Below are positions 4,214 to 26,916 of a DNA stretch of 64,000 nt, piece after piece (within the stretch, counting starts at the first letter, position 1; each line of letters opens with the position of its first letter). Position numbers and translations under genes: made by a program. The notes under the pieces are model-generated. The model was given only the letters and a program-made list of their open reading frames with translations. It searched no databases and was not told the origin of the DNA. This stretch comes from a virus: IMG/VR virus record IMGVR_UViG_3300028027_000059, positions 1 to 64,000 of that record; one strand, 5' to 3'.

Positions 4214-4960
4214 TTAAAGGTATGACTCAGCTAATTCGAACAATTGTTCGTTTAATTGAATATCTTTTTGGAAGTTCTTTACAGATCTAGCCTTACGACC
4301 ACCTGAAGTATATGAACCACCTAATATTTTTTCTTGAATACGATTAAATACTAACCATAAATCATTACCAACGTCTTCTTTACGAGTTGGTTCTAAGATA
4401 CTCATAATATTAACTGTTTTCTTAGTTCTCAATGCAGCCGCTTTAGTAGCGAAGTCTTCCATTTGAGGCTCAGTTAATACTTTAGTTTTAAACTTATTAA
4501 TCTTCTGAACTAATCCAGGTAACTTAGTAATCATTTCGTTTACCTTAACCTGTAATGAACCGAATGTGTAGTTAACGTGTCTGATAGACATTACTCCAAA
4601 ATCAGCATCGCTAATTACTAAACCATTACTACATACGAATCGGAAGATACCAACTCTAAAATTGAATGCAGCCTTACCATCATGTGAATTGGTAAGTAGG
4701 ATTTGGGGACATGAATCATCTCCATTAGCACCCTTAATCATAATAGATGGGTTTTGGAACATGATTAAATGTTTTTGGAAGCCTTTGTACTTACGAGATT
4801 TAACCTCTTGTACTTTAGTAACGTTCCAACCTAAATTCATTAAATCTTCTACAACACGGATTGTAGGTGTCTGAATGTATTTATCAGATAAATGTGAAGC
4901 TTTTTCAGTTGTAAATACTGACGGCGCTATTGCCTTAATTTGTTCAATGTTGTAACTCAT
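4214..4960 (-). CDS. DUF932-like phage/plasmid protein
   Basis: LLTNSHDGKAAFNFRVGIFRFVCSNG resembles the DUF932 core. The start was trimmed to MSYNIEQ because the promoter-like motif lies upstream. Confidence 0.45.
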   Translation of the reverse strand: MSYNIEQIKAIAPSVFTTEKASHLSDKYIQTPTIRVVEDLMNLGWNVTKVQEVKSRKYKGFQKHLIMFQNPSIMIKGANGDDSCPQILLTNSHDGKAAFNFRVGIFRFVCSNGLVISDADFGVMSIRHVNYTFGSLQVKVNEMITKLPGLVQKINKFKTKVLTEPQMEDFATKAAALRTKKTVNIMSILEPTRKEDVGNDLWLVFNRIQEKILGGSYTSGGRKARSVKNFQKDIQLNEQLFELAESYL

Positions 4961-4988
4961 AACCTTTATTTTAATTTTATTTATAACG

Positions 4989-5003
4989 TAAATATAGTAA
5001 GGG
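4989..5003 (-). terminator. GC-rich hairpin
   Basis: gggggcattgccccc forms a perfect 6-bp stem between two genes. Confidence 0.4.
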
Positions 5004-5020
5004 GGCATTGCCCCCTCTAA

Positions 5021-5206
5021 TTAATTTAATACTCCTAAACGTGCATATAATATAGCCTCGCTATACGCCTCCATTTCGTCTAATGTTTCAGGCTCGTACA
5101 TTTCATCTATTCGATATACGATCTCTTCTCTATCCATACCTCTTAACGTTAATGAACGGGTCCAATTTTCAACTTCGAAACATTTAGTTATCAATTCTGC
5201 TGTCAT
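5021..5206 (-). CDS. hypothetical protein
   Basis: 61-aa ORF preceded by the promoter-like motif. Confidence 0.35.
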   Translation of the reverse strand: MTAELITKCFEVENWTRSLTLRGMDREEIVYRIDEMYEPETLDEMEAYSEAILYARLGVLN

Positions 5207-5218
5207 ACTTAATTATTT

Positions 5219-5233
5219 GACATGAATGTACGA
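5219..5233 (-). promoter_or_regulatory. conserved promoter-like motif
   Basis: Minus sense GTCGTACATTCATGTC, 14 nt upstream of ATG 5206. Confidence 0.4.
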
Positions 5234-5635
5234 CTATTGCTCTGCCACCCACTTACCGCTATCAATCAACTTAAATTCCATATCATTTCTATCTATGAAT
5301 TGATACGTTGCTGATTGTAGATTAAAATGCTCGTTAATGTGATTTAATACTTGCTCAGGTGTGAAATCAGAGCAACTGTATAAGTCAAATTGGAACATTG
5401 AAGGATGAATTGCATCCCAAACATGTATTGAAGCGTGAGATGTAGCTAGTGTTACTGTACCTGTTATTCCCTCGTTTCCAAGTTCATTAACATATACTGA
5501 GGTAGGTCCTGCTACAACTACCATTCCGACTTTATTTACTAATTCTCTAAACCATTGGTTTAGTACTTCTTCTGACTTGGGTGGGTTAGTAATATAACCC
5601 TTTACTAATAGGTGGAGGTGATTTGGTACGAACAT
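5234..5635 (-). CDS. S-adenosylmethionine decarboxylase-like pyruvoyl proenzyme (SpeH/SpeD class 1B family)
   Basis: ITGTVTLATSHASIHVWD...FDLYSCSDF aligns with bacterial SpeH VVIISESHLTIHSFPE...IDVYTCGD. The self-cleavage dipeptide is T-S rather than E-S. Confidence 0.6.
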   Translation of the reverse strand: MFVPNHLHLLVKGYITNPPKSEEVLNQWFRELVNKVGMVVVAGPTSVYVNELGNEGITGTVTLATSHASIHVWDAIHPSMFQFDLYSCSDFTPEQVLNHINEHFNLQSATYQFIDRNDMEFKLIDSGKWVAEQ

Positions 5636-6264
5636 TACTTAAACTTAAATCCTGTTAATTTTTCAACATCAGCAAGATCGACTTGATTGTTATGAATACC
5701 GTCTGCTTTAGTTGTATTGTTATCAAATATAAATGCCATGTATTCTTTAGACTTTTTAGTGTATATTACTTTCCAGCATTGAGTTGGTACTGAAGTTGTA
5801 CCTATTTTTTTAGCTACGCCTACTGAACCACACCATACTTTAACTGAATCGTCTTTAAGTGCAATTTCACGAGATAACATCTCTAATGCTTTCCAATCGC
5901 CTCTGTTTAATGCAGGGTATTGAGCAGTCATATTGCTGAAGAAGAATGATTCTTCGTTTGCTATTTGATCACATACCACATCAGCTGCAGGCATATTATG
6001 TCCGCGATCGAATCCAGCGCCTGTATAATCTGCTTGAAGATTTGTTTCATTTGGTAATTTTGGATCTGGGATGAATTTATCACCACGTTTTACTTTAACA
6101 GGACATGTTAAACCTGCTTTAGTAATCCACCATTCAACTTTAACTGGGTAGTGTTTTGATTTACTGTAATGCGTTGTATACGCTTTGTGAGTTAGTGTAA
6201 CTACATCTTGAGCTGTAACTGTGAAACTAACTAATAATAATAGGGCTAATAGGCATTTTTTCAT
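5635..6264 (-). CDS. secreted DNA/RNA non-specific endonuclease (Serratia NucA family)
   Basis: Signal peptide MKKCLLALLLLVSFTVTAQ. DRGHNMPAAD catalytic motif. FSNMTAQ supplies the metal-binding Asn. Confidence 0.7.
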   Translation of the reverse strand: MKKCLLALLLLVSFTVTAQDVVTLTHKAYTTHYSKSKHYPVKVEWWITKAGLTCPVKVKRGDKFIPDPKLPNETNLQADYTGAGFDRGHNMPAADVVCDQIANEESFFFSNMTAQYPALNRGDWKALEMLSREIALKDDSVKVWCGSVGVAKKIGTTSVPTQCWKVIYTKKSKEYMAFIFDNNTTKADGIHNNQVDLADVEKLTGFKFK

Positions 6265-6275
6265 GCCGATAAATA

Positions 6276-6542
6276 TCAGGCACCTAACATAACCTTGGAT
6301 AGCCATATACCAAATACACTACCTACTACACCACCTAAAGCATAACCTAACCATTGATGTAATGTATTGTCGCTATTAGCAATACGTTTGATTACGAAAT
6401 AACCTAACGTTGCAATTGCGAAGTCAGATAGTGCTGACCATATGTAATGTGCTTGTGCTACTGCTCTATAGTTGATAACTAATAAGCCATAGCTTAGTGT
6501 TTGTATTCCTAACATAATTAGGAACTCTTTTAACTTAACCAT
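6276..6542 (-). CDS. small two-helix transmembrane protein (holin-like?)
   Basis: 88 aa with two hydrophobic helices. Lies immediately upstream of the nuclease. Confidence 0.35.
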   Translation of the reverse strand: MVKLKEFLIMLGIQTLSYGLLVINYRAVAQAHYIWSALSDFAIATLGYFVIKRIANSDNTLHQWLGYALGGVVGSVFGIWLSKVMLGA

Positions 6543-7143: not shown

Positions 7144-8865
7144 CTACCACCACGCGCGCTTGCGGTTTACGACCTCTGCGTTTGCATATTCGTTCTTCGG
7201 TAACGCCCCAATTTGTTTCCTTGACCTGTTTGTAAAAGGCCTGCCTAATTTTTTCCCAGTATTCTTTATCTTGTTCCATAGACTTAAATGTACGACTTCT
7301 GGTTGTGCCTCCTCGGATCTTAATCTATTAATGTCAGCTTCTAACTCCTGAATAATTCGTTGGTTATTTTTAATACCAGCTAACATTTGCATTTTGATTT
7401 TTACATCATTATCCAATGTTCCTAGCTCAATATTATCTAATAGTGAATAGTGCTTTTCAGCTACACGTTCATTAGCTTCAGCTACTTGGGATGCCATTGC
7501 ATCTTCAAGACGTTGCTGTGATAGTTCAGCCATTCTACTATCGTCAAATTCTCTATTAAGTGAATTAACAACTTGTTGTATATCATCATCATTCATTTGT
7601 GGTGGTGGAACTGGTTCTGTTACATCTCCACCATTCCATTCTCTAGTTAATTCTTGAATAAGTTGTTCTCTGTTATAATTTTCTGGATCTAATAGGCCAT
7701 TCACATATCGTTCTCCATTAGGGCCATATGTGATATGATCTCCATTAGATGTTATTCTCATTCTTTCAACCCCATCATCTGTAAATCTAATATTTCCATT
7801 TCTAACTTCTAAATCACCATGAACTTGTATTTGTGCTGTTGGTGTTGAAGTACCTAACCCTATTCCCACATTGGTTGTAGTTGAACTAACTGTAAATGTA
7901 TTTGGGTTGTAAGTGTAAATAGTACCAGTACCTGTTGATGGCCAATTTGTTATTGTTGTACCACTACTTTCAACATGGTCTATTATACCACCTGATCTAT
8001 ATGAATTATCTATACCAGGTCCTTCTTCATACATTCCTGGTCTGTAATTACCATCCCTATACATTTCTAATTTATCACTTTCCTCTTGAGTCATTAATGT
8101 CTGATTAGGAACAGGCATTTCTTTAATTTCATTTCTGATTGCCTCTAATACTGCTGATGGTGCTTCTGAATCTAATGCCTCAATTCTTCTATCAGTAACA
8201 TCCCACCATGAGAATTCATTATCATGATTTGGGTCTATATTTTTAAAGCAAGCTACTTTATAACCTGTTTTCTTATTAATATTATAAATCAATATGCCAC
8301 GAGATGAATAGCGAGCATAGTATTGACCTGTATTGGTTGTAGTACACCATTTAGTATTAGCACCATATTTCATTGATGCCTCTAGTGATAGTGGTCTTAA
8401 GGATACCCAAGTATCGTCCTCGTATACCTTTTTAATTTGTTTCTCTAATTTCTTATCTATTAATTTGATTTCAGCTAATGCAACTGCTTGCTCAATTTCT
8501 TCCCATGTTGAATAAGACGTAACATCAGTGTTTTCAATTAATTTACGTTCAATGAATGAAGCGAACTTAGTAAATCGTTTTATATTTTCATCACCAATCA
8601 TATAATTAAAAGTACCAAGTAAGAATTGTAATGTATCTAAATCAAGTGTTTGAATATAATTATAATCTAATCCTGTATGTGATACTATATACTCAACTAC
8701 TTCATTACGATAATTATCTGAATGATGGTTGAGTTTGTTTTTATCTAATTTAATAAGCATTTCAATATACTTATTAGATTGATTTGGTGATATCATTTTA
8801 AAGACATCAATAGCGCTCATAGCGTAGAGTGGATGTTGTTTCTTTAATTCGTCTATTCTTGACAT
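7144..8865 (-). CDS. large hypothetical protein with a fibre-like G/T/S/N-rich central segment and a C-terminal coiled coil
   Basis: 573 aa. Central NVGIGLGTSTPTAQIQVHGDLEV resembles fibre motifs. An out-of-frame ORF 7076..7279 overlaps its 3' end. Confidence 0.45.
   Translation of the reverse strand: MSRIDELKKQHPLYAMSAIDVFKMISPNQSNKYIEMLIKLDKNKLNHHSDNYRNEVVEYIVSHTGLDYNYIQTLDLDTLQFLLGTFNYMIGDENIKRFTKFASFIERKLIENTDVTSYSTWEEIEQAVALAEIKLIDKKLEKQIKKVYEDDTWVSLRPLSLEASMKYGANTKWCTTTNTGQYYARYSSRGILIYNINKKTGYKVACFKNIDPNHDNEFSWWDVTDRRIEALDSEAPSAVLEAIRNEIKEMPVPNQTLMTQEESDKLEMYRDGNYRPGMYEEGPGIDNSYRSGGIIDHVESSGTTITNWPSTGTGTIYTYNPNTFTVSSTTTNVGIGLGTSTPTAQIQVHGDLEVRNGNIRFTDDGVERMRITSNGDHITYGPNGERYVNGLLDPENYNREQLIQELTREWNGGDVTEPVPPPQMNDDDIQQVVNSLNREFDDSRMAELSQQRLEDAMASQVAEANERVAEKHYSLLDNIELGTLDNDVKIKMQMLAGIKNNQRIIQELEADINRLRSEEAQPEVVHLSLWNKIKNTGKKLGRPFTNRSRKQIGALPKNEYANAEVVNRKRAWW
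7283..7296 (-). promoter_or_regulatory. conserved promoter-like motif
   Basis: Minus sense GTCGTACATTTAAG, upstream of ATG 7279. Confidence 0.35.
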
Positions 8866-8901
8866 AACATTATTTTATTAGATAAAGGTAATGAGAAGGC
8901 C

Positions 8902-9969
8902 TTAGGCCTCCTCTTTACTCCAAAATGGTTTTTCGTATTTAGGTTTCATTAACTTCCAAATGATATGGTCATATGGTTTTCCATCCCACATTGCAAAGCA
9001 CACTGAACGATGTCCAGGCAATACATTACCTTTTTCTAGGTGTAATGCAAAGTCCTTTTTAGTTGGTTCAGGATCTACATCATTGTATTTACCATATCTA
9101 AAGTAATCATGTATTTTACCACAGTACTCTCTAATACTGTATTTACCATACTCAAATGATCTAATTTGGTCTCTAACCCACTTATCGAATTCATCTGGTA
9201 CTCGTTCTAAGAATGGTTCTAAATCGTCTCCATTCATCATCAATTCCCAAATGTCTTTAGATGAGAAATTAGTTAGTATTCTATGTAAACGAACATATTC
9301 TTCACCTTTGATTTTCATTCTCATACCTGATCTAAATCGAATAACATATCCTTCTTGGTTAGGATCGATCATTTGCTTCAACGCTTTATAATCGTTTATA
9401 CCATCATATCGTTTTACAACTTCAAATCCTTCACTAACCATATTATCAATACTACCTTCATTACCTGTTTCGTTATTATAAACCCCAATTACAATTAGTT
9501 TTTCAACCCCACCATAATCAACTACAATTCTATTTTCAGGATAAATAATTTCAAATAAGTAAGTATAACCAGGTATCATTCCATATTCAGTATTTTCCTT
9601 ATCTAATAGTTGTTTACCTTTAATAGCTTGTTCTGATGTGAATGATCCTTTGGAGGCGAAATGCCATTCTCCATTATAATGAAAAGCAATACCTAATGAT
9701 CCATCTAACTTTTCAGTTACAGTAAATGGTTCGTTTGGAATTGAATCCAATTCTTCCATATTGAAGAACTTAGGAAACGCCTTTGCTACAACGTTACCTT
9801 TATCATCTAAGATCAAACCACGACAAGTCATAGTAACATTATCCCATTTACCTTCGTATTGACAAGTACGAGAGTAATTGTATATTGATAAAGGTAAAGA
9901 TGGGTGGTCTTGTTTAATCACCAATCCATCCTCTATGTATTTATTTAATATATTTAAACTATATTTCAT
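8902..9969 (-). CDS. ATP-dependent RNA ligase (T4 Rnl1-like nucleotidyltransferase)
   Basis: Motif I TEKLDGSL (KxDGSL). Motif IV NQEGYVIRF. Motif V MRMKIKGEEY. Confidence 0.7.
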   Translation of the reverse strand: MKYSLNILNKYIEDGLVIKQDHPSLPLSIYNYSRTCQYEGKWDNVTMTCRGLILDDKGNVVAKAFPKFFNMEELDSIPNEPFTVTEKLDGSLGIAFHYNGEWHFASKGSFTSEQAIKGKQLLDKENTEYGMIPGYTYLFEIIYPENRIVVDYGGVEKLIVIGVYNNETGNEGSIDNMVSEGFEVVKRYDGINDYKALKQMIDPNQEGYVIRFRSGMRMKIKGEEYVRLHRILTNFSSKDIWELMMNGDDLEPFLERVPDEFDKWVRDQIRSFEYGKYSIREYCGKIHDYFRYGKYNDVDPEPTKKDFALHLEKGNVLPGHRSVCFAMWDGKPYDHIIWKLMKPKYEKPFWSKEEA

Positions 9970-10567
9970 CTAAACTATCTGGGTAATATAATAATGTTGG
10001 GTTTTTCTTTTGAATATCGATGTGTGGAAATAAATCACTAAATTCTTTAACATCAAAGCGTTTAGTAATCAGATGAAATCCATTCTTTGTTGGAATTATA
10101 GTTTCAACTTTATTATCAATTTCAGGTCTACATACGCCAATTGCTGTTATTATACTTAATAATTTTGAACCATCTTTAGTATCAACATCTACAATCCATC
10201 TTTTCTCATGTGTTTTAAGTTGACCTACAACCGAATCAAATAAACCTTGTTGTTCGTGTTGTCCGTCTCTTATTTTTTGAGCTAACGCTACCATCATTTC
10301 CAATGATACGTCTTTATGGTTTTGTTTTTGAACATGAATATAAGCTCTTGCCTTAAACACCTCACACAGCATCATTATTTCATCATATCGCTTTTCTAAT
10401 TGCTCAATCGATTTGATACAGTATGATCTTATTGTTCTTACTGATTGGTGATTGTCCTTCTCGCTTTCAGGTTGATCCTTCTTACGTTTGAAAACGTATA
10501 ACATATAGAAATCACCTTCATTTTCGAAGTTAAGTAATGGTTTAATATGTTCTATGTTGTTTATCAT
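9959..10567 (-). CDS. hypothetical protein
   Basis: 202-aa ORF inside the RNA-repair gene block. Confidence 0.4.
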   Translation of the reverse strand: MINNIEHIKPLLNFENEGDFYMLYVFKRKKDQPESEKDNHQSVRTIRSYCIKSIEQLEKRYDEIMMLCEVFKARAYIHVQKQNHKDVSLEMMVALAQKIRDGQHEQQGLFDSVVGQLKTHEKRWIVDVDTKDGSKLLSIITAIGVCRPEIDNKVETIIPTKNGFHLITKRFDVKEFSDLFPHIDIQKKNPTLLYYPDSLDEI

Positions 10568-10974
10568 AACTTAATTTTATCTAATCTAATAACTGAACCT
10601 TGCCCATGCATTAACTGAATAACATATGAGCCTAAATAGTAAGCCATAGAAGTAAACATGTTCCAGTATTTTTCATCTCTACATTTTTCACCGTACTTTT
10701 CAGCATATAATAATAATATCCAAAGTAATGGCTCTCTAGGTTCACAACCTCGTTTATATTCTCTACTTACGTACTCATCAGAATAATATTTATTCATTAA
10801 TTTTTCAGTTAATAAGTCTATATTATCACCATAATGCGTTTTAATTTTTTCAACCCATCTGTTATCAACTTCATTTTTAACATTCATTCTTTCAATGAAT
10901 GCTTTCATATGAGCTTTACCCTTATCTGATTTAAGATAATCATCTAGTTCTTGTTTGAATGTTGATCTTGTCAT
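10564..10974 (-). CDS. hypothetical protein
   Basis: 136-aa ORF. Confidence 0.4.
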   Translation of the reverse strand: MTRSTFKQELDDYLKSDKGKAHMKAFIERMNVKNEVDNRWVEKIKTHYGDNIDLLTEKLMNKYYSDEYVSREYKRGCEPREPLLWILLLYAEKYGEKCRDEKYWNMFTSMAYYLGSYVIQLMHGQGSVIRLDKIKL

Positions 10975-10984
10975 AATTTAATAT

Positions 10985-11173
10985 TTAATCTTCTTCATCA
11001 ATCATCCACTCAGCATCGCATGGTGAACTTTTATCATTGTCAAATAAATCTTTACAATCATCACAGAAATGTTGAGAAGCGTATGCCCAAGCTTCTTCAC
11101 AGGAATCAAATCCACCCTTAGAGGGGTCATTCCTATCCGATGCAGGCATATAAATTGCTTCCCACTTTTTCAT
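10985..11173 (-). CDS. small Cys/Asp-rich protein
   Basis: 62 aa with CEEAWAY...CDDCKD...CDAEW. Confidence 0.3.
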   Translation of the reverse strand: MKKWEAIYMPASDRNDPSKGGFDSCEEAWAYASQHFCDDCKDLFDNDKSSPCDAEWMIDEED

Positions 11174-11174
11174 A

Positions 11175-11585
11175 TTATAATTTAATTTGAAATCTGTTTT
11201 TCATTTGTTCTAACTTCTCATCAGGCACATTGTGTACTGATTTATTTCCATGTCTATTTTCTACTATTAATGATATTACTTTATAATCATATTTGTTAGC
11301 TAAATCAATATATGGTTGTAGTTCCTTTTCAGTAGTAGATGTATTTGATACTACAATTTCAGGATAATATTGAGGGTTTTCTTCATGAGTTTTCATAGCT
11401 TGCTCTACTCTCGATTGACAGTCTTTATGTGCTGCTCCTAATTTAGTAGCATCAAAGTTATAATTACCTTCATTATCGTAGAAATATTGGTCAGCTTCAA
11501 ATATAACTCCACTTTGCCAAATGAAATTAGCAAATGTACTTTTACCTGCTCCAGGTAATCCTCTTAATAATATTAATTGTTTCAT
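11175..11585 (-). CDS. P-loop kinase, polynucleotide kinase-like
   Basis: N-terminus MKQLILLRGLPGAGKSTFANFI parallels the T4 Pnk kinase domain (Walker A GxxGxGKST). Confidence 0.55.
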   Translation of the reverse strand: MKQLILLRGLPGAGKSTFANFIWQSGVIFEADQYFYDNEGNYNFDATKLGAAHKDCQSRVEQAMKTHEENPQYYPEIVVSNTSTTEKELQPYIDLANKYDYKVISLIVENRHGNKSVHNVPDEKLEQMKNRFQIKL

Positions 11586-11588
11586 AAC

Positions 11589-11996
11589 TTATACTGTATG
11601 TTGAATTTGTACCCTAACACAATTTTGTGGTAATCGGCTTACGTGTCTATAATTGTTAATATAACCCATTATATTTGCCGAGCCAATAGCGTTTGCTGAG
11701 TGAGTGTAAACATCAAATATTGCTTCACCTTCTATCCATCTATCAACTAACCACTTAGCACAATCGTATCCTGTTTTTTCAGTGATATTGTTGTAGTCTA
11801 ATTGGTAATTTTTATAGACGTTTGTACGCCATTCTTTCATAGCACTATCACCTAAATCATGATCTAGAGATACTAATTCAATATTATTGAATCCAATTTT
11901 TTCAATTGTACTAACAAATTCGTCATAGTTTCTAACTATAACCCACCCTTCATCAATTGGGGTTCTAACATCGTCTAAGTATATTCTTTGTTTCAT
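11589..11996 (-). CDS. DHDLG-motif domain protein (possible receiver-like, cyclic-phosphate-processing domain)
   Basis: RIYLDDVRTP...VSLDHDLGD...TGYDCAKWL...HSANAIG. Lies between the kinase and the phosphoesterase. Confidence 0.35.
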   Translation of the reverse strand: MKQRIYLDDVRTPIDEGWVIVRNYDEFVSTIEKIGFNNIELVSLDHDLGDSAMKEWRTNVYKNYQLDYNNITEKTGYDCAKWLVDRWIEGEAIFDVYTHSANAIGSANIMGYINNYRHVSRLPQNCVRVQIQHTV

Positions 11997-12679
11997 TATT
12001 GTTCGTTTTTTAATCGTTCTTCGTGATGGTCGGAAGGTAATTTATTTGATTGGACAGGCCTACCTTTTAATGTTCTAATAATTTCAGTTGCGTTATAAGG
12101 CATCATGTTATTACCATCCATACCTACATCCATACTTCTACCATCCATTAATTTTTGGACTGGGGGTAAGTGAACGTGTCCAAATAAGTGAAATACACCT
12201 TTATTCATATCATGCCAACTACATAATGGGTAATGATCAATAATAAAATTATATTGTCCACCTATAAGTGCGCCGTGTGATGGATACTTTACGTGTAACC
12301 AAGTATATTGAAATGTTTGAGTGAATAGACTTTGAATATCGTTTTTATTCTTTTCAATATGATGATCATGATTACCATAAGCCAAATATATGTTTTGACA
12401 TATAATTCTGTCTCTAAATTCCTTAATAGAATCAAATCCACCAAATGACCAATCGCCTAAGTGAATTAAGATATCATCTTGACCTACTACACTATTAATG
12501 TTATTAACAATAGTATCGTTCATATGACCTAAATCCTTAAAGTCTCTAGTTTGATCAACAGGTATTTTATCGTCTGCTGTTCTCCAATCAGTAACTCCTC
12601 TACAAATATTTTTATGGTTGTAGTGAGTGTCAGATGTGAAGAATAGTTTTTGACCCCATTTTAATTCTATCTTTAACAT
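11996..12679 (-). CDS. calcineurin-like metallophosphoesterase
   Basis: Motifs SDTHYNH, LGDWSFGG, GNHDHH and GHVH. Confidence 0.7.
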   Translation of the reverse strand: MLKIELKWGQKLFFTSDTHYNHKNICRGVTDWRTADDKIPVDQTRDFKDLGHMNDTIVNNINSVVGQDDILIHLGDWSFGGFDSIKEFRDRIICQNIYLAYGNHDHHIEKNKNDIQSLFTQTFQYTWLHVKYPSHGALIGGQYNFIIDHYPLCSWHDMNKGVFHLFGHVHLPPVQKLMDGRSMDVGMDGNNMMPYNATEIIRTLKGRPVQSNKLPSDHHEERLKNEQ

Positions 12680-12682
12680 AAC

Positions 12683-12883
12683 TTAATTTATATATTCAGT
12701 TAATAATTCTTTAGCGCCTACAACATATTGTAATGCTCTTAATTTACATTCATCTTTAAACGGTTTACCGTTTTTAATATTCATATCCCATTGAGGTTCA
12801 CCTCCATTAGCCAACCCAGTAAAGAATCCATCTTCACTGAATATAACGAATTCATGTACTTTGGGTTCTTTTACTTTTTTCAT
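12683..12883 (-). CDS. hypothetical protein
   Basis: 66 aa. The promoter-like motif abuts its ATG. Confidence 0.4.
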   Translation of the reverse strand: MKKVKEPKVHEFVIFSEDGFFTGLANGGEPQWDMNIKNGKPFKDECKLRALQYVVGAKELLTEYIN

Positions 12884-12945
12884 GACGTGAATATAAGAAG
12901 GGGACTCTGACGAGCCCCCTAACTTATTATCATATATAAATAGCT

Positions 12946-13890
12946 CTATTGAATATTCTTAAACATTTGAGGTACAGTACCATATACAGGTAATTTACCA
13001 TCCCACTTATTAATATACTCTAACTGTAATAACAATGGTGTTAATGTTTGTTGTTTCATTCTATTTGATTCAGCTTCAGCCTTAGCGCTTGTTAACATCG
13101 CTTGAGCGTTACCTTCAGCCGTTGCTACTTTAATTTTAGCTTGTGCTTCAGCCGTTTTAACTTCATTTTCAGCTCGTAATGCTGCTTGTACAGCGTTATT
13201 CTTAGCTTCGATTGATTTCTTAAACGTTTCAGGATATACTAAGTTGGATGTGAATTGGTTAATTACGAATCCTTCTTTTAATAAGGTAACATCTAGTAAT
13301 CTTCTAACTTCAACTTCAAATACTGCTCTATTACTAATTAATTCATCAGCTGTATATTTGTTAGTTGCTAATCTAAATGCATCATATACCGCTGTCTTTA
13401 AGAATCCTTCTTCAATATCTTCTAGTGGTCTACGATATTTAGAGAAGATTGAAGGTACTTTTTCACGTTGTACTGAGTAGTTCATAATTGGAGATACTGC
13501 AAATTCAGATCCATCCTTACTATTTACAATAAATGAATTATCACCTACATATTCCTTGTGTTGGATAAATGTTGGAAACTCATATACTTTAGTAGTGATT
13601 GGATTGTAGAATACCATACCAGTAACTGCTACTACATCGTCTACACCTTTGTTATCACCATATTGATTTACTTTAACACCAACATGTCCAGCGTCAATAC
13701 GCTCACACGACATAAATAAGAATATTAAAGCGAAGAAACCTAATACACCTGCTGTAATTAACTTTGTCATTTTTTGTTTTATTATTTGTTGTTTTTGATT
13801 AAATTCTTGTTCTAGTTGATCAATTTCTTCATTACTTCTACGTCTACCGTAGTTGTCATACTGATAATCATACCTTCTAAATGTAGCCAT
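12946..13890 (-). CDS. SPFH/band-7 (prohibitin/HflC-like) membrane protein
   Basis: N-terminal TM helix, SPFH core, and a C-terminal Ala/Glu/Lys-rich coiled coil. Confidence 0.7.
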   Translation of the reverse strand: MATFRRYDYQYDNYGRRRSNEEIDQLEQEFNQKQQIIKQKMTKLITAGVLGFFALIFLFMSCERIDAGHVGVKVNQYGDNKGVDDVVAVTGMVFYNPITTKVYEFPTFIQHKEYVGDNSFIVNSKDGSEFAVSPIMNYSVQREKVPSIFSKYRRPLEDIEEGFLKTAVYDAFRLATNKYTADELISNRAVFEVEVRRLLDVTLLKEGFVINQFTSNLVYPETFKKSIEAKNNAVQAALRAENEVKTAEAQAKIKVATAEGNAQAMLTSAKAEAESNRMKQQTLTPLLLQLEYINKWDGKLPVYGTVPQMFKNIQ

Positions 13891-13891
13891 A

Positions 13892-14170
13892 CTATTTTGT
13901 TTTTTTAGTTTTTACTTGTTTCATCTTTTTATCAAGGTCCGCTTTCCACTTTGCCTCAAGTGCTTTTTCTTCCTCTGATTTAGTAAAGTATTTTTCCTTT
14001 ACATAATTAAGATCAAATAAGAACACAGCAATAAACCCTAACACAGTTAACATATTAATAAATGTACTTGCTGCTGTTAATCCTGGAAATATGATCAAAT
14101 CAAATGCAGCAATGTTGCCTAATAGCATTAAGATGGGTTCCCATCGTTTATCATTGAATAATTTTTTCAT
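13892..14170 (-). CDS. small membrane protein (possible NfeD-like partner of the SPFH protein)
   Basis: 92 aa with two TM helices. Directly downstream of the SPFH gene. Confidence 0.35.
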   Translation of the reverse strand: MKKLFNDKRWEPILMLLGNIAAFDLIIFPGLTAASTFINMLTVLGFIAVFLFDLNYVKEKYFTKSEEEKALEAKWKADLDKKMKQVKTKKTK

Positions 14171-14189
14171 AACCTATTTATTTTTTATT

Positions 14190-14447
14190 TTATTTATTTA
14201 CTTGCCAAATATGCCATACAAATGGACCATCAAATAATGAATCAATGTAGGTATGGGTCAGATAATCAAATTCAAAACTATGACCTGTACCAATTATTTC
14301 AAAATTACTTTCATATGTTTCTTTCTCATTTTGATCTACTAATACCCATATTTGCATAGTACCATTTTGCATTCCAACTTTTAAAACTTGTGAATCAATT
14401 GGTAATGTAACTTTTTTTGCTAATTCATATTTGTAAATCACTTTCAT
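14190..14447 (-). CDS. hypothetical protein
   Basis: 85-aa ORF. Confidence 0.35.
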   Translation of the reverse strand: MKVIYKYELAKKVTLPIDSQVLKVGMQNGTMQIWVLVDQNEKETYESNFEIIGTGHSFEFDYLTHTYIDSLFDGPFVWHIWQVNK

Positions 14448-14456
14448 AACCTATTT

Positions 14457-15245
14457 TTATTTATTATTTAATATCCCTAAATGTACGTCTCCATCTTTGA
14501 CAACCAAATATTGATTTTGTCCATATTCAAGTGTGTCAATGAAATAATATCTACCACCTGTAGCTTTGCCTTCAATATCAATTTGATCTTGAGGTGTATG
14601 TCCTACTACTTGTCTAATGAAATTTTTAAGTGTTTCTTTATTAGTAAGTTTACCATCTTGAGTTGACTTATTAGCAGCCATTAACGCTTTAGGTCTAATC
14701 CAAATTGGACCTTGAAACGTTTCCTCACCATAACCTCTAGCTCCAATCCACTCAGTTTCACTTATCATTTTAAATGAACGATAAGCAATTAAGCCTGGTT
14801 GGTGTTTGAATAATTCATTAACCTTATCAACCATATTAGTTACATCCCAATCTCCAATCATATCATCTAACCATTCACTACTTAACCCAGCATGTGAACA
14901 TACGAAATCATCAAATTGATAAGCTACTTGTAAGTGTTTCTTATTCTCACCTAATAGGATTTTGAAAGTAGGAGCCATTACTGTTTGATAACCTGATGTT
15001 GATGTGTCATCAATTTCAGGTAAATAATGGTAATCATGATTACCTAATAACAATACTACTTCTTTATCAGTTGATTGTTTAAATTCAATGATGTCTAAGA
15101 AATTATCCATTTGCTTTACACCTGGAATTGTAAATGAATCAAAATAATCACCTACGAAGACAAATCTGTCTGCGTCTTGCTCTTGTTCAGTAATTTGTTT
15201 CCAGTAAGGACGGCCATGAATATCGCCTATTAATACGGTTTTCAT
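14457..15245 (-). CDS. PPP-family Ser/Thr (lambda-type) protein phosphatase or phosphoesterase
   Basis: Motifs GDIHG, GDYFD, GNHDY and GHT. Confidence 0.7.
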   Translation of the reverse strand: MKTVLIGDIHGRPYWKQITEQEQDADRFVFVGDYFDSFTIPGVKQMDNFLDIIEFKQSTDKEVVLLLGNHDYHYLPEIDDTSTSGYQTVMAPTFKILLGENKKHLQVAYQFDDFVCSHAGLSSEWLDDMIGDWDVTNMVDKVNELFKHQPGLIAYRSFKMISETEWIGARGYGEETFQGPIWIRPKALMAANKSTQDGKLTNKETLKNFIRQVVGHTPQDQIDIEGKATGGRYYFIDTLEYGQNQYLVVKDGDVHLGILNNK

Positions 15246-15272
15246 AACTTAAATTTATAACCTTAATTATGC

Positions 15273-15497
15273 CTACCAAAACTTATACCATGCTTTCTCA
15301 ACTATGGGTTTTGGTGTTGAGCGTTTTATTGTACGATTAAGTAACAATGATGCTGTTTGATACATCTTATACTTATCATCTTCACTAAGATCTTTTAAAC
15401 TAATCTGTATTATAACGGGAGCTGTCGAATCGCCAGCTTGCATTTCGGTGTTAATTACTATATATTCCTTTCCGTTATTTTTAGTTAGTTTTATCAT
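15273..15497 (-). CDS. hypothetical protein
   Basis: 74-aa ORF. Confidence 0.35.
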   Translation of the reverse strand: MIKLTKNNGKEYIVINTEMQAGDSTAPVIIQISLKDLSEDDKYKMYQTASLLLNRTIKRSTPKPIVEKAWYKFW

Positions 15498-15515
15498 AGC
15501 GGATATAAATATATG

Positions 15516-15785
15516 CTACTCGGTTTCGCTTAGTTTGTCTTCAAATTTTTTAGCAGCAACACTATCTTCTTCACTTAATAAACCTAAAGCAGTCTCATAT
15601 CTACCAACATTAGATTGATTAATAAATAATTCAGCTTGTAAACTATCTAAATTTGTATTTTGGTAGGTTTTAATTTCGCTTCGTAATTTAGCTAATTCCT
15701 TTTGTTGTAAGTAGTTAACTACCAACATAGTAAGAGCAAATCCCATACCTAGTTTGCCGTAATTCTTTTTAATAAATTCTATCAT
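15516..15785 (-). CDS. hypothetical membrane-anchored protein
   Basis: 89 aa with one TM helix. Confidence 0.35.
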   Translation of the reverse strand: MIEFIKKNYGKLGMGFALTMLVVNYLQQKELAKLRSEIKTYQNTNLDSLQAELFINQSNVGRYETALGLLSEEDSVAAKKFEDKLSETE

Positions 15786-15795
15786 AATTATAATT

Positions 15796-16161
15796 TTAAT
15801 CCCACCATTTTTCTATATTATTACTTAAATATTTAAATAATTCTTGTCTTGCTTTATTATGATCTTTTGTAGACTTATTCATTCCTTCAGTAGTCCACTC
15901 TGTAGTCTCTGATAGATACTTATCAAGATGATACTCAGTTTGCACCTTTTCTATCATATCAATTGCTTTTAAAATATCATCAGCATCTCGATTATTATAA
16001 AAATGAACACCGTCTCTACGAATATATTTTTCAGTATCAATTAATTTTTGTTTTAATATCTCGTAAACGAAATAATAATCCCAATCACGATCTCTCCATA
16101 TAATTGGAATCCAACGTATTAATTTACGTAGTTGTTTTATTTTTTGTTTAATTCTATACAT
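15796..16161 (-). CDS. hypothetical protein
   Basis: 121-aa ORF. Confidence 0.4.
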   Translation of the reverse strand: MYRIKQKIKQLRKLIRWIPIIWRDRDWDYYFVYEILKQKLIDTEKYIRRDGVHFYNNRDADDILKAIDMIEKVQTEYHLDKYLSETTEWTTEGMNKSTKDHNKARQELFKYLSNNIEKWWD

Positions 16162-16445: not shown

Positions 16446-17831
16446 TTAGAACATTGTTCTTGCTCCAATCATGAAGAAGTTTAATATAGGTGAACCAGGC
16501 GCCGTTGATGCATTTAATTTCCAATCAATAGCAAATGCGAATCGTTTTGATAATTGATAGGAATAACCAACACCAACTAACCCAGCTATGTTATAGTTCC
16601 AGGAGCCTCCGGTTTCCGTATTGTACGCATACGGGGAACCCATGATGAAGACCCCTGGGGATACCGTTGATTTCTTATTCAACGGATAAGGTTTGGTCCA
16701 GAAGCCTGTAGTCGACGATGCGAACTGATATGAATAGCTATCTGCACCTTTAAGTTTAATATTAATAATTGATAAGTTATAGCCTAATACACCATACTTA
16801 GGATGTGGTCTAACATAAGTGTAACCACCAAATGTCATTGGAATACCATTCATCCAAGCGAATGTATATGAATATGCTTTAATTGCTTTTAAACCACCTT
16901 TCTTATCAAACACCATGTTACTAGTGTTACCTGATAATGCAAATGATTTTAAATCAGCATAGATCATACTCGATAAACCCCAACTCGCGTCGCCTGCAGC
17001 TGAAGATGAAGACATACCTAATGAAATAATAGGTGTAAATCCGCCTGTTGGGTTTTGAGCTGTAGTTAGATCTGAATTAACTAAGATTGGGTTTAATCGT
17101 AGTTGTTTCTTTTCATCTTTCTTCTTATCCTCTTTTTTTTCTTCCTTTTTATCTTCTTTTTTTTCCTCTTTAGATTCAGATTTAGATTCTTCTTTCGATT
17201 CCGATTTGCTTTCTGACTTGCTCTCTGAACTGCTCTCGCTTTTTGTTTCGCTGCTTGATCCTGAACTCTCCGTGCTTGAGCTTGATGAAGAGGATTCCCC
17301 AGAAGACGATGAAGATTGGGAAGATGAGGAAGAGGACGATGAAGTTGATTGGGTAGATGAAGAAGCGGTTCCACTCGAAGCGGTTGATGCGCTCGATGAA
17401 GCAGCGCTTGAAGCACTTGATGATGCTGATGACGATGCTGAGGAAGCTGCTGTACTTGCAGCTGAAGACGCTGCGGATGAAGCTGCGCTTGCTGCTGACG
17501 ATGCTGCTGCTGATGCTGCTGTTGAGGCGGCTTGTGATACAGTTGCAGTTATTGTTTGTTGTACCGCTGTGTTTGTAGGACATGGCGTTGCGAATATTTC
17601 ACTGATCCATTTAGTTACTGTACCTGAAGCAAAATCAGCATATGTAAATGTTCTAGATTTGTTTCTGATAAGTACAACTACACCAGGTTGGTTTGATGCT
17701 ATAGGAACTAATACTGTGTATGTTTTGGAATCACAGGGATCAATGTAGGTTTGAGTAATAAATTGACCATTCGCTTTATTAGCGAAGGCAAACGAAACTA
17801 ATATTAATAGACTTAATATCCATTTTTTCAT
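16446..17831 (-). CDS. secreted protein with a long disordered Ser/Ala- and Lys/Glu-rich linker and a C-terminal outer-membrane beta-barrel-like domain
   Basis: Signal peptide. About 150 aa of (A/S)n then (ESK)n and KE-rich sequence. The last ~220 aa show alternating amphipathic strands and end ...GARTMF with a terminal Phe. Confidence 0.5.
   Translation of the reverse strand: MKKWILSLLILVSFAFANKANGQFITQTYIDPCDSKTYTVLVPIASNQPGVVVLIRNKSRTFTYADFASGTVTKWISEIFATPCPTNTAVQQTITATVSQAASTAASAAASSAASAASSAASSAASTAASSASSSASSSASSAASSSASTASSGTASSSTQSTSSSSSSSSQSSSSSGESSSSSSSTESSGSSSETKSESSSESKSESKSESKEESKSESKEEKKEDKKEEKKEDKKKDEKKQLRLNPILVNSDLTTAQNPTGGFTPIISLGMSSSSAAGDASWGLSSMIYADLKSFALSGNTSNMVFDKKGGLKAIKAYSYTFAWMNGIPMTFGGYTYVRPHPKYGVLGYNLSIINIKLKGADSYSYQFASSTTGFWTKPYPLNKKSTVSPGVFIMGSPYAYNTETGGSWNYNIAGLVGVGYSYQLSKRFAFAIDWKLNASTAPGSPILNFFMIGARTMF
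17093..17583. repeat. coding low-complexity tandem codon repeats
   Basis: gct/gca/tca/tct-rich on the coding strand, followed by gaa/aag repeats. Both strands give long spurious ORFs here. Confidence 0.6.
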
Positions 17832-23416: not shown

Positions 23417-23442
23417 AAGGGTAACCTTTCGGTTACCCTTAA
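23417..23442. terminator. perfect 10-bp hairpin
   Basis: aagggtaacc-tttc-ggttaccctt lies between the secreted-protein gene and the tmRNA 3' end. Confidence 0.5.
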
Positions 23443-23444
23443 TG

Positions 23445-23867
23445 TGGAGATGAGGGGAGTCGAACCCCTGTCTTTAATAGAGACAGCTATACCAGCGTGT
23501 CACACGTTTAGATCTGTTGCCTGATCAGTAGCTTTTGATCTACGTTTTAAGCTGATCAGTAAGGGCCGTACAGTTAAGTACCAAACCACCACTTTGTTTT
23601 ATGACTACAAAGAAAACTAATGATCACTCGAATCTTCCGCTAGTAGTGTGATCGTACTCCAGCTGTGCTGTTCTGTTGCAAGGCTATCAGCTGCCCCGTG
23701 CAATTAAGCCGCTAAAGCGTACTCGTTCGCGCCTACGAAAGACATTGCATCTTCGAAGGTCATAGTAGATAATTCTACGGTTATTGTTTTGCAAGTATTT
23801 AAAGACATTCTTACTTTGTCTACGTGTGGTATTACCTCTACAATTAAATCAATTCCAGGGCATCCCC
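23445..23867 (-). ncRNA. ssrA: tmRNA (SsrA)
   Basis: 5' GGGGAUG pairs with 3' CAUCUCC and includes a G3-U wobble. The T-arm is GGGGTTCGACTCCCC. The internal reading frame gcg aac gag tac gct tta gcg gct taa encodes the tag ANEYALAA*. Confidence 0.8.
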
Positions 23868-24248
23868 ATGTTTTTTACGTGGTTTCTTATCTAATATTTT
23901 CTTAACCTCAGCACATAATTCATACTCCTCAATTGCAATTAAATCGTTCAAACAATTGCTTAATAAATCAGTATACTGCGATTTTTCAATATTAAATATC
24001 ATTCCACTCATATCTTTGAATGTGATATCAAATATATCAATTCCGTCTTTATTTCGCTTATATGCGCTAAGTACACATTTAACCATTTTAAGAATCAAGT
24101 CGCTATCTCGTTCTTTCATTAGTTGAAAGAACTCACGTTGATCTTTTAATGTTAAACAATGACATGCCATGTAGATAAATATTTGAAAAAATACTAAGCA
24201 ACTCCCGAACTCTTGCCATGGGTGGTCTGGGAAAGCTGATTTGATCAA
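23844..24248 (-). CDS. hypothetical protein
   Basis: 134-aa ORF. Its 3' end overlaps the tmRNA 5' end by about 24 nt, so the true extent is uncertain. Confidence 0.3.
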   Translation of the reverse strand: MIKSAFPDHPWQEFGSCLVFFQIFIYMACHCLTLKDQREFFQLMKERDSDLILKMVKCVLSAYKRNKDGIDIFDITFKDMSGMIFNIEKSQYTDLLSNCLNDLIAIEEYELCAEVKKILDKKPRKKHGDALELI

Positions 24249-24292
24249 GACCAGACTCGGCCACTCATTCCTTGCGGATAGTATTTTTTTTG

Positions 24293-24378
24293 TGCCTCAG
24301 GCGGGAATCGAACCCGCACTCGCGTTGCGGCGAACAGGATTTTAAGTCCTGCGTGTCTACCAGTTCCACCACCAAGGC
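24293..24378 (-). tRNA. tRNA-Leu(TAA)
   Basis: Anticodon arm CAGGA-CTTAAAA-TCCTG, long variable arm, T-loop GGTTCGATTCC. Confidence 0.7.
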
Positions 24379-24384
24379 ATTAGC

Positions 24385-24545
24385 TGTAGGGGCTGGAATC
24401 GAACCAGCACGCAGCGATTCAATAAATGACAAAATAGCCGGCTTTGTGGTCAACCCCTATCATTTATCTATCTCGTTATCTGCACCCACGAGACGAGTGG
24501 GCGTGTATTCCAGTGGCGTACGCCTTTTCACCACCCTACAGTTTT
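24385..24545 (-). ncRNA. atypical ~160-nt tRNA-like element
   Basis: 3' T-arm GCTGGTTCGATTCCAGC. Acceptor-like 5' TGTAGGG pairs with 3' CCCTACA. About 65 extra internal nucleotides, so an intron or degenerate gene is possible. Confidence 0.3.
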
Positions 24546-24799
24546 TAATTAATACTGTCTTCTGTAAGATCAATATTAAACTTAGTTTGATTAATTCTAG
24601 CTTGTTCAGCTTCTTTAACCATATTAATCCAAGTTATAGACACATCAACTGGGGCTAATATCCAAGCCATAATTAAAACCATTATGGAATCCATTTCTGG
24701 TGATGTTCCATAATCAACACCTCTTGTTTTGTATTTTTTACTTAACTGATAGAAACAGTAAATAATACAAATAACGTAATACGTTAAAAAAATATTCAT
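24545..24799 (-). CDS. small membrane protein
   Basis: 84 aa with two TM helices. Confidence 0.35.
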   Translation of the reverse strand: MNIFLTYYVICIIYCFYQLSKKYKTRGVDYGTSPEMDSIMVLIMAWILAPVDVSITWINMVKEAEQARINQTKFNIDLTEDSIN

Positions 24800-24804
24800 A
24801 ATCT

Positions 24805-25263
24805 TTATTTTACTAAGTGATCTGCAGCATAAGTCATAATTGGTGAGTTACCTTTATGTCTTACTGCATATCCCATTCCTGTTACAATACCAACAGCGCT
24901 CGTTAATGCAGCATTTGATTTGTATTTTGGATCTGGATTTAGGTCAATATCAATCCACTTTGCTGCCACTCCAACCTCGTTTTTAATTATTTCAGCAGTT
25001 TCTACAGACATCCAAACTTCATTTAATAAACGATTTACGTTTTCACGTTCACGCGTTGTGGTAAAACGAGAGTATAATACGTGAGCACCTTTACCTGGTG
25101 TGTACAAACCAATTACGATAGCATAAATGGTTTCACGTTTTCTATTTTGTGAATCACAACCAACCAATATTTCTATATTTGGATGTTGCGAAACATACTC
25201 TTTTACGTAATCAATTAGTTCAATTTTTTTATTTGAAACTAATGTTTTGAATTGCCTTTCCAT
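24805..25263 (-). CDS. DUF458/YkuK-family protein (RNase H-like fold)
   Basis: ILVGCDSQNRKRETIYAIVIGLYTPGKGAH matches the vGtDSQ...GkG core of the family. Confidence 0.5.
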   Translation of the reverse strand: MERQFKTLVSNKKIELIDYVKEYVSQHPNIEILVGCDSQNRKRETIYAIVIGLYTPGKGAHVLYSRFTTTRERENVNRLLNEVWMSVETAEIIKNEVGVAAKWIDIDLNPDPKYKSNAALTSAVGIVTGMGYAVRHKGNSPIMTYAADHLVK

Positions 25264-25296
25264 AGCTGTTTTATTTCATAGATAAATATATTTTGG

Positions 25297-25378
25297 TACC
25301 CCATGAGGGAGTCGAACCCTCAATGCCTAAGGCGCTAGATCCTAAATCTAGTGTGTCTACCAATTCCACCAACGGGGC
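25297..25378 (-). tRNA. tRNA-Leu(TAG)
   Basis: Anticodon arm CTAGA-TTTAGGA-TCTAG, long variable arm. Confidence 0.7.
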
Positions 25379-25383
25379 ATTCA

Positions 25384-25487
25384 AATCAGGACAGGAATCA
25401 AACCTGTTTCAGCTTTATCATACAGAGTGCCATTAGCAGTTAGTCTCAACCTGGAGGGTGCTATGTTATCAATACACTACCTGATTT
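25384..25487 (-). ncRNA. ~105-nt tRNA-like element, anticodon unassigned
   Basis: Acceptor AATCAGG/CCTGATT, T-arm ACAGGTTTGATTCCTGT, long internal region. Confidence 0.3.
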
Positions 25488-25489
25488 TG

Positions 25490-25563: not shown

Positions 25564-25568
25564 AATTG

Positions 25569-25641: not shown

Positions 25642-25693
25642 CTGGAGAGGGACACGTTATTTATCCGTTTAAGGGACTCCCTCAGACCCTATG

Positions 25694-26041: not shown

Positions 26042-26046
26042 ATATG

Positions 26047-26915: not shown

Positions 26916-26916
26916 G

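Follow-up and report, generated by a model that had tools for sequence, protein, structure and literature searches.

The healing and sealing of broken RNA by a phage has its precedent in T4, whose Pnkp and RNA ligase 1 (Rnl1) carry out a tRNA repair that counters the PrrC anticodon nuclease. For a phage, RNA repair is among the few known ways to answer host anticodon nucleases, and beyond T4 and the bacterial Pnkp/Hen1 system its occurrence in phages is known almost solely from gene-neighbourhood predictions. Here we describe a compact set of putative RNA-repair genes, at 8902-12883 on the minus strand of a 64,000-nucleotide stretch of viral DNA (positions 1 to 64,000 of IMG/VR record IMGVR_UViG_3300028027_000059, the whole of which is called the window), and compare it with the systems it most resembles.

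The closest described loci are those built around cREC, a cyclic-phosphate-processing Receiver-like domain that was named by Iyer, Burroughs, Anand, de Souza and Aravind and predicted by them to open cyclic phosphates on RNA ends or on ADP-ribose derivatives (PMC7824862, PMC9503650). This type of neighbourhood, exemplified by E. coli phage V5 and Proteus phage Mydo, was predicted in 2021 and again in 2022 to function in RNA repair (PMC7824862, PMC9503650), and may combine a T4-like tRNA ligase, cREC, a nucleotide kinase, MazG and occasionally a calcineurin-like protein with a sirtuin (PMC9503650). According to its authors cREC is experimentally uncharacterised (PMC9503650), and our literature search found no later experimental paper on it. 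RNA-repair neighbourhoods also often hold a nucleotidyltransferase that restores lost bases, such as RlaP, the CCA-adding enzyme or Thg1 (PMC7824862, PMC2904730). In Pnkp of Clostridium thermocellum (CthPnkp), a binuclear metallophosphoesterase resembling lambda phosphatase carries out both the 2',3'-cyclic phosphodiesterase and the phosphatase steps (PMC2190708, PMC3675462).

We put at about 0.6 the probability that the core of the locus in the window serves to heal the ends of RNA cut by metal-independent ribonucleases and to seal them; most likely it would re-join tRNAs cleaved by host defences. This reading draws on the family matches of the proteins and their intact catalytic motifs, on the tight packing of the operon and on a clustering that is conserved in many phages; on these grounds the initial annotation was right to see a healing-and-sealing set made of separate genes. 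It had also regarded the split architecture as unusual and a protein with a DHDLG motif (11589-11996) as a new component. Neither claim to novelty holds, since a profile search identifies that protein as the published cREC (PF20274, 81 bits) and the split core has already been described (PMC9503650). The same core also stands side by side in E. coli phage JohannJBalmer, where a 2.8-kb segment adjoining PRPP-synthetase and NAMPT genes holds cREC, an MPE1 homolog, Rnl1 and a kinase about 50% identical to that of the window. The split core is thus known already as a computational prediction, and what is new here is the presence of two extra conserved genes, U202 and U136, and the Bacteroidota background.

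Layout and enzymes of the core unit

The window is AT-rich (G+C about 32%) and nearly all of its transcription lies on the minus strand. The open reading frames (ORFs) named in the initial annotation are all present on this strand and their coordinates are exact. Reading from 12883 to 8902, the core genes are U66, the calcineurin-like metallophosphoesterase MPE1, cREC, the kinase, U62, U136, U202 and the Rnl1-family ligase, and the eight are joined by overlaps or by gaps of 1-10 nt. Ligase, cREC, kinase and MPE1 all fall inside 3.8 kb. Two terminator-like hairpins on the minus strand, each with a 9-bp stem and 6 G-C pairs, bracket the block: one between the SPFH gene and U66 (12899-12920), with a T-rich tail, is its probable upstream boundary, and the other, which lies over the ligase stop codon (8893-8913), is its probable end. 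Terminator-like sites number 8 in the region, against 2.7 +/- 1.7 in shuffled sequences. It is because of these bracketing hairpins that 12883-8902 is taken as the core unit, and the block is most likely one transcription unit. Promoter scans of both the Sigma-70 type and the Bacteroidetes type (TAnnTTTG) found the motifs at chance frequency.

The last gene of the unit (8902-9969, minus strand) encodes the Rnl1-family RNA ligase, as had been recognised from its motifs. It matches PF09511 (RNA_lig_T4_1) at E 2e-17, with 64 bits against a threshold of 28.3, as well as phrog_562 (E 2e-67, over residues 13-348 of 355) and the T4 Rnl1 structure 2c5u (E 1.5e-15). The nucleotidyl-transfer motifs KxDGSL (K87), EGYV (E206) and KIK (K219/K221) correspond to K99, E227 and K240/K242 of T4. 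In the 2c5u alignment E140 pairs with T4 E159 and E206-G207 with T4 E227-G228, and residues specific to the Rnl1 N-terminus are also conserved (R50 for T4 R54, K67/F69 for T4 K75/F77). The nearest relatives of this ligase are actinophage ligases, at 36-39% identity.

The kinase gene (11175-11585, minus strand) encodes 136 amino acids and is a candidate 5'-OH kinase, with matches to AAA_33 (E 1e-8), phrog_2071 (E 3.5e-44) and phrog_505, 'polynucleotide kinase' (E 4e-8). Single-sequence searches of the PDB returned nothing significant for the kinase, cREC or either of two metallophosphoesterases, nor for a distant 2H protein, and family profiles were required. With a profile built from 23 kinase family members the best PDB match was T4 Pnk (1ly1/1ltq, E 3e-5), spanning the whole kinase domain and agreeing with the earlier description of this protein as a T4-Pnk-like P-loop kinase; the next matches were PSTK (L-seryl-tRNA(Sec) kinase), the CthPnkp kinase and Pnkp1. 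The P-loop, GLPGAGKST, occupies residues 9-17, and in the profile alignment to 1ly1 D32 of an invariant EAD corresponds to D35, the catalytic general base of T4 Pnk. The protein is about 50% identical to coliphage kinases whose genes adjoin an RNA ligase.

Two further enzymes of the core are candidates for healing 3' ends. The first, cREC (11589-11996, minus strand; PF20274 cREC_REC, E 8e-23, 81.3 bits against a gathering score of 27), is a predicted 2',3'-cyclic phosphodiesterase with the acidic motifs LDD (residues 7-9) and LDHDLG (44-49). Its gene adjoins those of the kinase and MPE1 and lies 1.6 kb from the Rnl1 ligase, with a similar arrangement in related loci. The parts of the window scanned with Pfam, which are all but about 33462-42935 and 45794-55552, showed no histidine kinase. 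The second, MPE1 (11996-12679, minus strand), is a candidate 3'-end phosphatase or phosphodiesterase. Its identification as a calcineurin-like metallophosphoesterase is confirmed by a PF00149 score above the gathering level (25.6 bits against 21.5), by phrog_547 (E 4e-38) and by a complete series of motifs: DTH (17-19), GD (75-76), GNHD (102-105), H149 and GHVH (167-170). A set of 22 sequences shows no variation at D17, H19, G75-D76, G102-N103-H104-D105, H149, G167-H168 or H170 of this series. The only relative of MPE1 in the PDB is the uncharacterised Aquifex protein aq_1665 (1xm7, E 1e-8).

Taken together, these enzymes could act in sequence. cREC, MPE1 or both would turn 2',3'-cyclic phosphate or 3'-phosphate ends into 3'-OH ends; the kinase, if it behaves as its homology to T4 Pnk suggests, would phosphorylate the 5'-OH; and the ligase, given its fully conserved motifs, would seal the nick through a lysyl-AMP on K87. 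The locus is compact and each predicted step belongs to a separate small protein, and it is therefore convenient for testing the role of cREC and which metallophosphoesterase heals the 3' end.

The remaining small genes of the unit appear to be lineage-specific and are recognised as ORFs only. U66 (12683-12883, minus strand; 66 amino acids), the first gene of the unit, has no family match in Pfam or PHROGs and no homolog in the related loci. U62 (10985-11173, minus strand), with 62 amino acids rich in cysteine and acidic residues, also lacks a Pfam or PHROGs family match and has no homolog among 117 related loci.

Clustering in related loci and the genes U202 and U136

The association of these genes was followed in 34 viral contigs with relatives of U136 and 80 with relatives of U202, taken with 10-kb flanks, whose ORFs were searched with the window proteins. 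As a control for co-occurrence, the 71 of these metagenomic phage loci, U136- or U202-anchored, that reach 15 kb or more were searched with every one of the 105 window ORFs. The genes found most often were MPE1 (32 of the 71 loci), the kinase (31), cREC (26) and the ligase (21). No other gene exceeded 11 of 71, the count for ClpP, followed by SPFH (10), the ORFs at 15796-16161 and 7144-8865 (7 each), 2H (6) and the second metallophosphoesterase, MPE2 (4). The four enzymes are far ahead, while the ORF at 7144-8865, which in the window lies directly downstream of the ligase, is low at 7/71, and this indicates that the association is specific and not a result of general synteny. Gene order is permuted between loci at only about 50% protein identity. 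The arrangements seen include MPE1-cREC-kinase-U202-ligase, ligase-U202-MPE1-kinase and cREC...U202-ligase-MPE1-kinase around U202, and MPE1-U136-kinase, kinase-U136, cREC-U136 and U136-ligase around U136.

The two genes between ligase and kinase, spanning 9959-10974, had been proposed as candidate new components, and both prove to be conserved partners of the cassette. U202 (9959-10567, minus strand) overlaps the ligase gene by 11 nt and encodes 202 amino acids with an archaeo-eukaryotic-primase (AEP) fold; it is a candidate nucleotidyltransferase. The profile searches that had been suggested for 9959-10567 and 10564-10974 gave no Pfam match for either gene, an AEP family included in the case of U202; the fold of U202 was recognised from structural matches, the best of which are the DNA primases RepB', PrimPol and PriS. 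The invariant residues D127, D129, G163, H165 and D172 stand in the order expected of the AEP motifs I (DxD), II (sxH) and III (hD), to which they may correspond. At E<=0.001 U202 has 6,612 homologs, and identity to it is 74-87% for the best 120. No gene of the set evolves more slowly: U202 is 66-74% identical in loci where the identity of ligase, kinase and MPE1 is about 50%. Among deposited (GenBank) phages its homologs occur in Bacteroidota phages only: one adjoins a tRNA nucleotidyltransferase in Cellulophaga phage phi17:2, and those of crAss-like cr116_1 and Tenacibaculum phage pT24 lie 1.3 kb from an RNA ligase and 7 kb from an Rnl1 ligase, respectively.

Since a nucleotidyltransferase is common in the published RNA-repair neighbourhoods, U202 is the obvious candidate for that slot in this one. 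Judged by its context, it might be the nucleotidyltransferase of the system and restore nucleotides lost at broken ends. We tentatively suggest, at well below even odds, that U202 is an RNA-acting AEP nucleotidyltransferase that rebuilds or extends cleaved tRNA ends before sealing, that U136 is a dedicated accessory, and that this step is widespread in uncultivated Bacteroidota phages. It is about as possible, and equally doubtful, that U202 is a phage DNA primase or primase-polymerase working in replication or repair, and that its position reflects a shared early or nucleic-acid-metabolism block. The structural matches to DNA primases point that way, and its very high conservation (about 73%, against about 50% for its neighbours) would suit an essential replication enzyme. 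Homologs of U202 also lie within 6 kb of DNA polymerase I in cr116_1 and within 2.4 kb of a DNA ligase in phi17:2, and some contigs (L002/L003 and about 15 U202 loci without matches) have no RNA-repair gene near U202. However, U202 is just 202 amino acids long and is devoid of helicase, zinc-finger or helix-bundle domains. Its commonest neighbours are the four RNA-repair enzymes, whereas the window's polymerase, clamp loader and nuclease are each found in at most 2 of the 71 loci; the association persists in spite of the shuffled gene order, and in phi17:2 the gene that U202 abuts is a tRNA nucleotidyltransferase. RNA-acting prim-pol domains are reportedly mentioned by Burroughs and Aravind in 2016. 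Our literature search, which did not extend to that article (NAR 44:8525), found no description of U202 or U136.

U136 (10564-10974, minus strand) overlaps U202 by 4 nt and encodes 136 amino acids that are predicted to be mostly helical with a small C-terminal sheet. It has no family match in Pfam, PHROGs or NCBIfam, and its structure model is confident yet has no relative in the PDB or BFVD. The family comprises 534 clusters at 50% identity, and within the proposed pathway U136 may be an accessory. U136 was also considered as an obligate partner of U202 and rejected in that role, as it occurs within 10 kb in 0 of the 80 best U202 loci. Among 150 representatives two fusions were seen, one with DUF1937/DUF4406 and one with U202. 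The former is the 258-residue relative P0250, whose N-terminal domain matches DUF1937/DUF4406 at E 8e-13, families of the nucleoside 2-deoxyribosyltransferase-like clan. The latter is a 336-residue U136-U202 ORF that follows a kinase, in the order of the window, on a single 1.5-kb contig (L126 521-1531; P0046), and may be either a genuine fusion or the product of an assembly indel.

The relatives of U136 keep varied company. Besides the cassette enzymes they stand directly beside an Rnl2-like ligase and HAD "Swiss-army-knife" phosphatases, and they lie directly upstream of paired PRPP-synthetase-like and NAMPT-like genes, often near NMNAT and nucleoside-deoxyribosyltransferase-like genes. PRPP-synthetase-like and NAMPT-like neighbours were noted in loci L004, L007, L010, L011, L018-L021, L024-L029, L034 and L039, and also in L123, the JohannJBalmer locus. 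As such neighbours resemble an NAD+-reconstitution pathway, it is possible that RNA repair and NAD+ rescue form one counter-defence island.

Accessory genes, RNA genes and the phage background

Upstream of the core, the genes for MPE2, DUF7352, U92 and SPFH appear to form a separate unit that is possibly read through into the core. The SPFH/Band-7 protein (12946-13890, minus strand; PF01145 E 1e-19, phrog_200 E 6e-68) has an N-terminal membrane helix and could be a scaffold; only loosely linked to the core, it is found in 26 of the 80 U202-anchored loci, when loci of all lengths and many near-duplicates are counted. MPE2 (14457-15245, minus strand) had been listed as a second phosphoesterase of the lambda type. 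That it is a metallophosphoesterase is supported by PF00149 above its gathering score (E 8e-10) and by a full set of motifs, which are of the PPP/lambda-phosphatase type (GDIHG, GDYFD, GNHD, H118 and GHT), but its place in the cassette is not, as it is only loosely linked (4/71 loci) and is cut off from the core by a terminator-like hairpin. In PHROGs it matches the phosphatase part of the Pnkp-like fusion phrog_8238 (E 3e-8) and the NinI-like phosphatase phrog_246 (E 7e-7). In the PDB it has weak ApaH matches only (E about 0.1), and its NCBIfam ApaH match is far under the cut-off.

The 2H phosphoesterase (62328-62891, minus strand) lies 47 kb from the cassette. Two HxT motifs, H57-C-T59 and H137-A-T139, both invariant in 6 sequences, place it in the 2H superfamily, in keeping with the initial annotation. 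The LigT affiliation and the membership of the repair set that were also proposed fare less well: the protein misses the cut-off of LigT TIGR02258 (16 bits against 65.7; E 0.0085), and 6 of the 71 loci have a 2H gene no more than 10 kb from the cassette, so that it is not a core member. It also falls short of Acb1 PF23474 (22.4 bits, cut-off 27; E 1e-4), and matches phrog_755 at E 8e-7. From the PDB its family profile retrieves only Acb1 chains (E 0.09-1.4), with the common motif PDYxPH.T..Y, and the protein seems to resemble the anti-CBASS protein Acb1 at least as much as LigT. Both MPE2 and 2H are still ambiguous after profile searches of the PDB; together with SPFH they would be optional accessories of the pathway and not part of its core. 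Directly upstream of the 2H gene, an ORF at 62888-63466 (minus strand) has a GIY-YIG-like start (YIYYL...FYIGRT) and may be a homing endonuclease; it has no Pfam match at E<=0.001.

A number of observations weigh against assigning the core to RNA healing and sealing. The ligase reaches 75 bits where TIGR02308, the T4 RnlA equivalog, has a cut-off of 242 bits, and hence is a member of the Rnl1 family and not an ortholog of T4 RnlA; its alignment to 2c5u ends at residue 252, which leaves the C-terminal tRNA-binding domain unaligned to that of T4. In T4 Pnk, Arg38 binds the phosphate 3' of the 5'-terminal nucleoside and Arg126 is a lid residue. The kinase has an invariant F35 at the position of R38 and a non-conserved residue at that of R126, with R111, H112 and H118 invariant nearby, and its homologs have been labelled merely 'nucleotide kinase' (PMC9503650). 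Many of the loci compared are near-duplicates, and the counts therefore overstate their independence. Flavobacterium phage vB_FspM_immuto, the closest cultured relative by protein, shares only cREC (67% identity) and MPE1 (52%) with the cassette and has no ligase or kinase within 9 kb, which means that this pair can act outside a ligase pathway. U202 could simply be a DNA primase, and the interleaving of these genes with NAD+-salvage genes in relatives would fit the metabolism of nucleotide signals or ADP-ribose.

Alternatively, the locus might be a counter-defence island directed against nucleotide second messengers and NAD+/ADP-ribose metabolism, in which cREC, MPE1, MPE2 and 2H break down signals made of cyclic (oligo)nucleotides or cyclic ADP-ribose and the ligase and kinase are bystanders or have another role. 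Several features already mentioned would suit this idea: the position of U136 relatives upstream of PRPP-synthetase-like and NAMPT-like genes and near those for NMNAT and nucleoside-deoxyribosyltransferase-like proteins, the fusion of one of them to DUF1937/DUF4406, the retention of cREC and MPE1 in immuto without a ligase or kinase nearby, and the exclusive, if uniformly weak, resemblance of the 2H profile to Acb1 chains in the PDB. cREC has moreover been proposed as an enzyme that processes cyclic ADP-ribose or 2'-3' cyclic nucleotides (PMC7824862). We nevertheless consider it unlikely. The Rnl1 ligase and the Pnk-like kinase, which have no role in signal degradation, are among the four most tightly linked genes, and the Acb1 matches are all below threshold. 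Furthermore, the scanned parts of the window contain no gene for NAMPT, PRPP-synthetase-like, NMNAT, sirtuin, Macro or Nudix proteins. Genes for KptA, MazG, an Rnl2-like ligase, HAD_SAK and SmpB were not found in these parts either.

RNA repair would also suit the rest of the phage, which invests in 23-24 tRNAs and a tmRNA (23442-28007, minus strand; ARAGORN and Rfam). ARAGORN lists 23 tRNA genes (24292-27857) and a tmRNA (23444-23867), so that the earlier figure of at least 23 tRNAs plus a tmRNA is correct; the tmRNA is confirmed by Rfam, with 64 bits for a gathering score of 47, and Rfam has one further tRNA, at 27935-28007 (minus strand), that ARAGORN does not list. Conversely, tRNA-Ser(gct) at 26696-26781 (minus strand) is listed by ARAGORN and not reported by Rfam at the gathering score. 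The true number is probably 24. The array had been described as lying beside the cassette; it is present but starts about 8 kb away, and is thus nearby and not adjacent. Rfam found no structured RNA in the cassette region (8000-16000). It could be supposed that the cassette serves to mature the phage's own tRNAs and tmRNA, by splicing, end trimming or repair during processing of the array, and not to oppose a nuclease, for 24 tRNA genes and the tmRNA are 8-19 kb away on the same strand and an RNaseH-like ORF lies inside the array. We regard this as very improbable, in that ARAGORN reported no intron-containing or split tRNA, a ligase is not needed for ordinary tRNA processing, and the same cassette is also carried by phages that have few tRNAs, the coliphage JohannJBalmer locus being an example. 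The RNaseH-like ORF (24805-25263, minus strand; PF04308 E 6e-18) is situated between the two tRNA-Leu genes.

When the cassette was compared by megablast with 50,697 deposited phage genomes, no nucleotide-level match appeared. To judge from its genes, the source is most likely a phage of Bacteroidota (Flavobacteriia-type), an assignment that is also in keeping with its signal peptides, its S21 gene and its queuosine-precursor genes. The ribosomal protein S21 homolog (56108-56290, minus strand; PF01165 E 1e-8) adjoins a dCTP-deaminase-like gene (55576-56103). A 7-deazaguanine (queuosine-precursor) gene set on the minus strand (56467-61758) comprises GTP cyclohydrolase I (56467-57099), a probable QueE-like ORF (57938-58786), QueC (59403-60203) and PTPS/QueD (61297-61758), with a 262-residue ORF without a Pfam match (60248-61036) between QueC and QueD; the same pathway is encoded near the cREC gene in phage immuto (L001). 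A 461-residue ORF at 16446-17831 (minus strand) has a signal peptide followed by a long low-complexity tract of Ser, Ala, Thr, Lys and Glu, and a weak homolog in immuto (L001 453-1079).

Other genes of the window include those for chaperones and proteases, with Pfam matches for Hsp20 (48709-49161) and a ClpP-like protein (31156-31698, minus strand), and with GroEL (46735-48357) and GroES (48365-48655), both on the minus strand, recognised from their translations alone. Finally, a DUF932 protein, an S-adenosylmethionine-decarboxylase-like protein and a secreted DNA/RNA non-specific endonuclease (PF01223 E 3e-38) are encoded in a row at 4214-6306 (minus strand).

Comparison with known systems

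If U202 does act on RNA, the activities known for the AEP superfamily would be widened and phage tRNA repair would gain a nucleotide-restoring step. U202 and U136 might then represent a previously unrecognised enzymatic step in that process. How far this departs from what has been described can be judged by setting the locus against its nearest counterparts.

The window resembles the published cREC neighbourhoods most closely, as in both an Rnl1 ligase, a small AAA_33 kinase, cREC and a calcineurin-like phosphoesterase are separate, clustered genes. It differs from the neighbourhood of Iyer et al. (2022) in that its scanned parts have no sirtuin, MazG, Nudix or NAD+-salvage genes, and from the JohannJBalmer locus in the insertion of U202 and U136, both of which are absent from the coliphage.

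With Pnkp/Hen1 the window shares the three kinds of module, given that its kinase, MPE2 and ligase each match the corresponding part of the Pnkp-like phrog_8238. In Pnkp, however, kinase, phosphoesterase and ligase are a single polypeptide, whereas the window genes are split, the ligase is of the Rnl1 type and there is no Hen1 methyltransferase. The tightly linked MPE1 moreover belongs to another, uncharacterised clade, that of aq_1665, while the lambda-phosphatase-like MPE2 is the loosely linked one. The 2H protein is like Acb1 in its PDYxPH.T..Y motif and two HxT motifs, and unlike it in scoring below the Acb1 threshold, as it does below that of LigT; it is also rarely linked to the cassette.

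With T4 Pnkp and Rnl1 the likeness lies in an Rnl1 ligase that has all the nucleotidyl-transfer motifs, in a kinase whose profile is nearest to T4 Pnk, and in the logic of healing followed by sealing. The ligases are nevertheless only distantly related (that of the window being below TIGR02308), and the window kinase has no equivalent of R38. In T4 the 3'-phosphatase, a HAD (DxDxT) domain, is part of the same protein as the kinase, whereas the window kinase stands alone and the candidate 3'-healers are cREC and the metallophosphoesterases. U202, lastly, differs from such members of the AEP superfamily as RepB' of plasmid RSF1010 and the PrimPol of cyanophage S-2L in that it has no partner domains, and its genomic company is one of RNA-repair enzymes.

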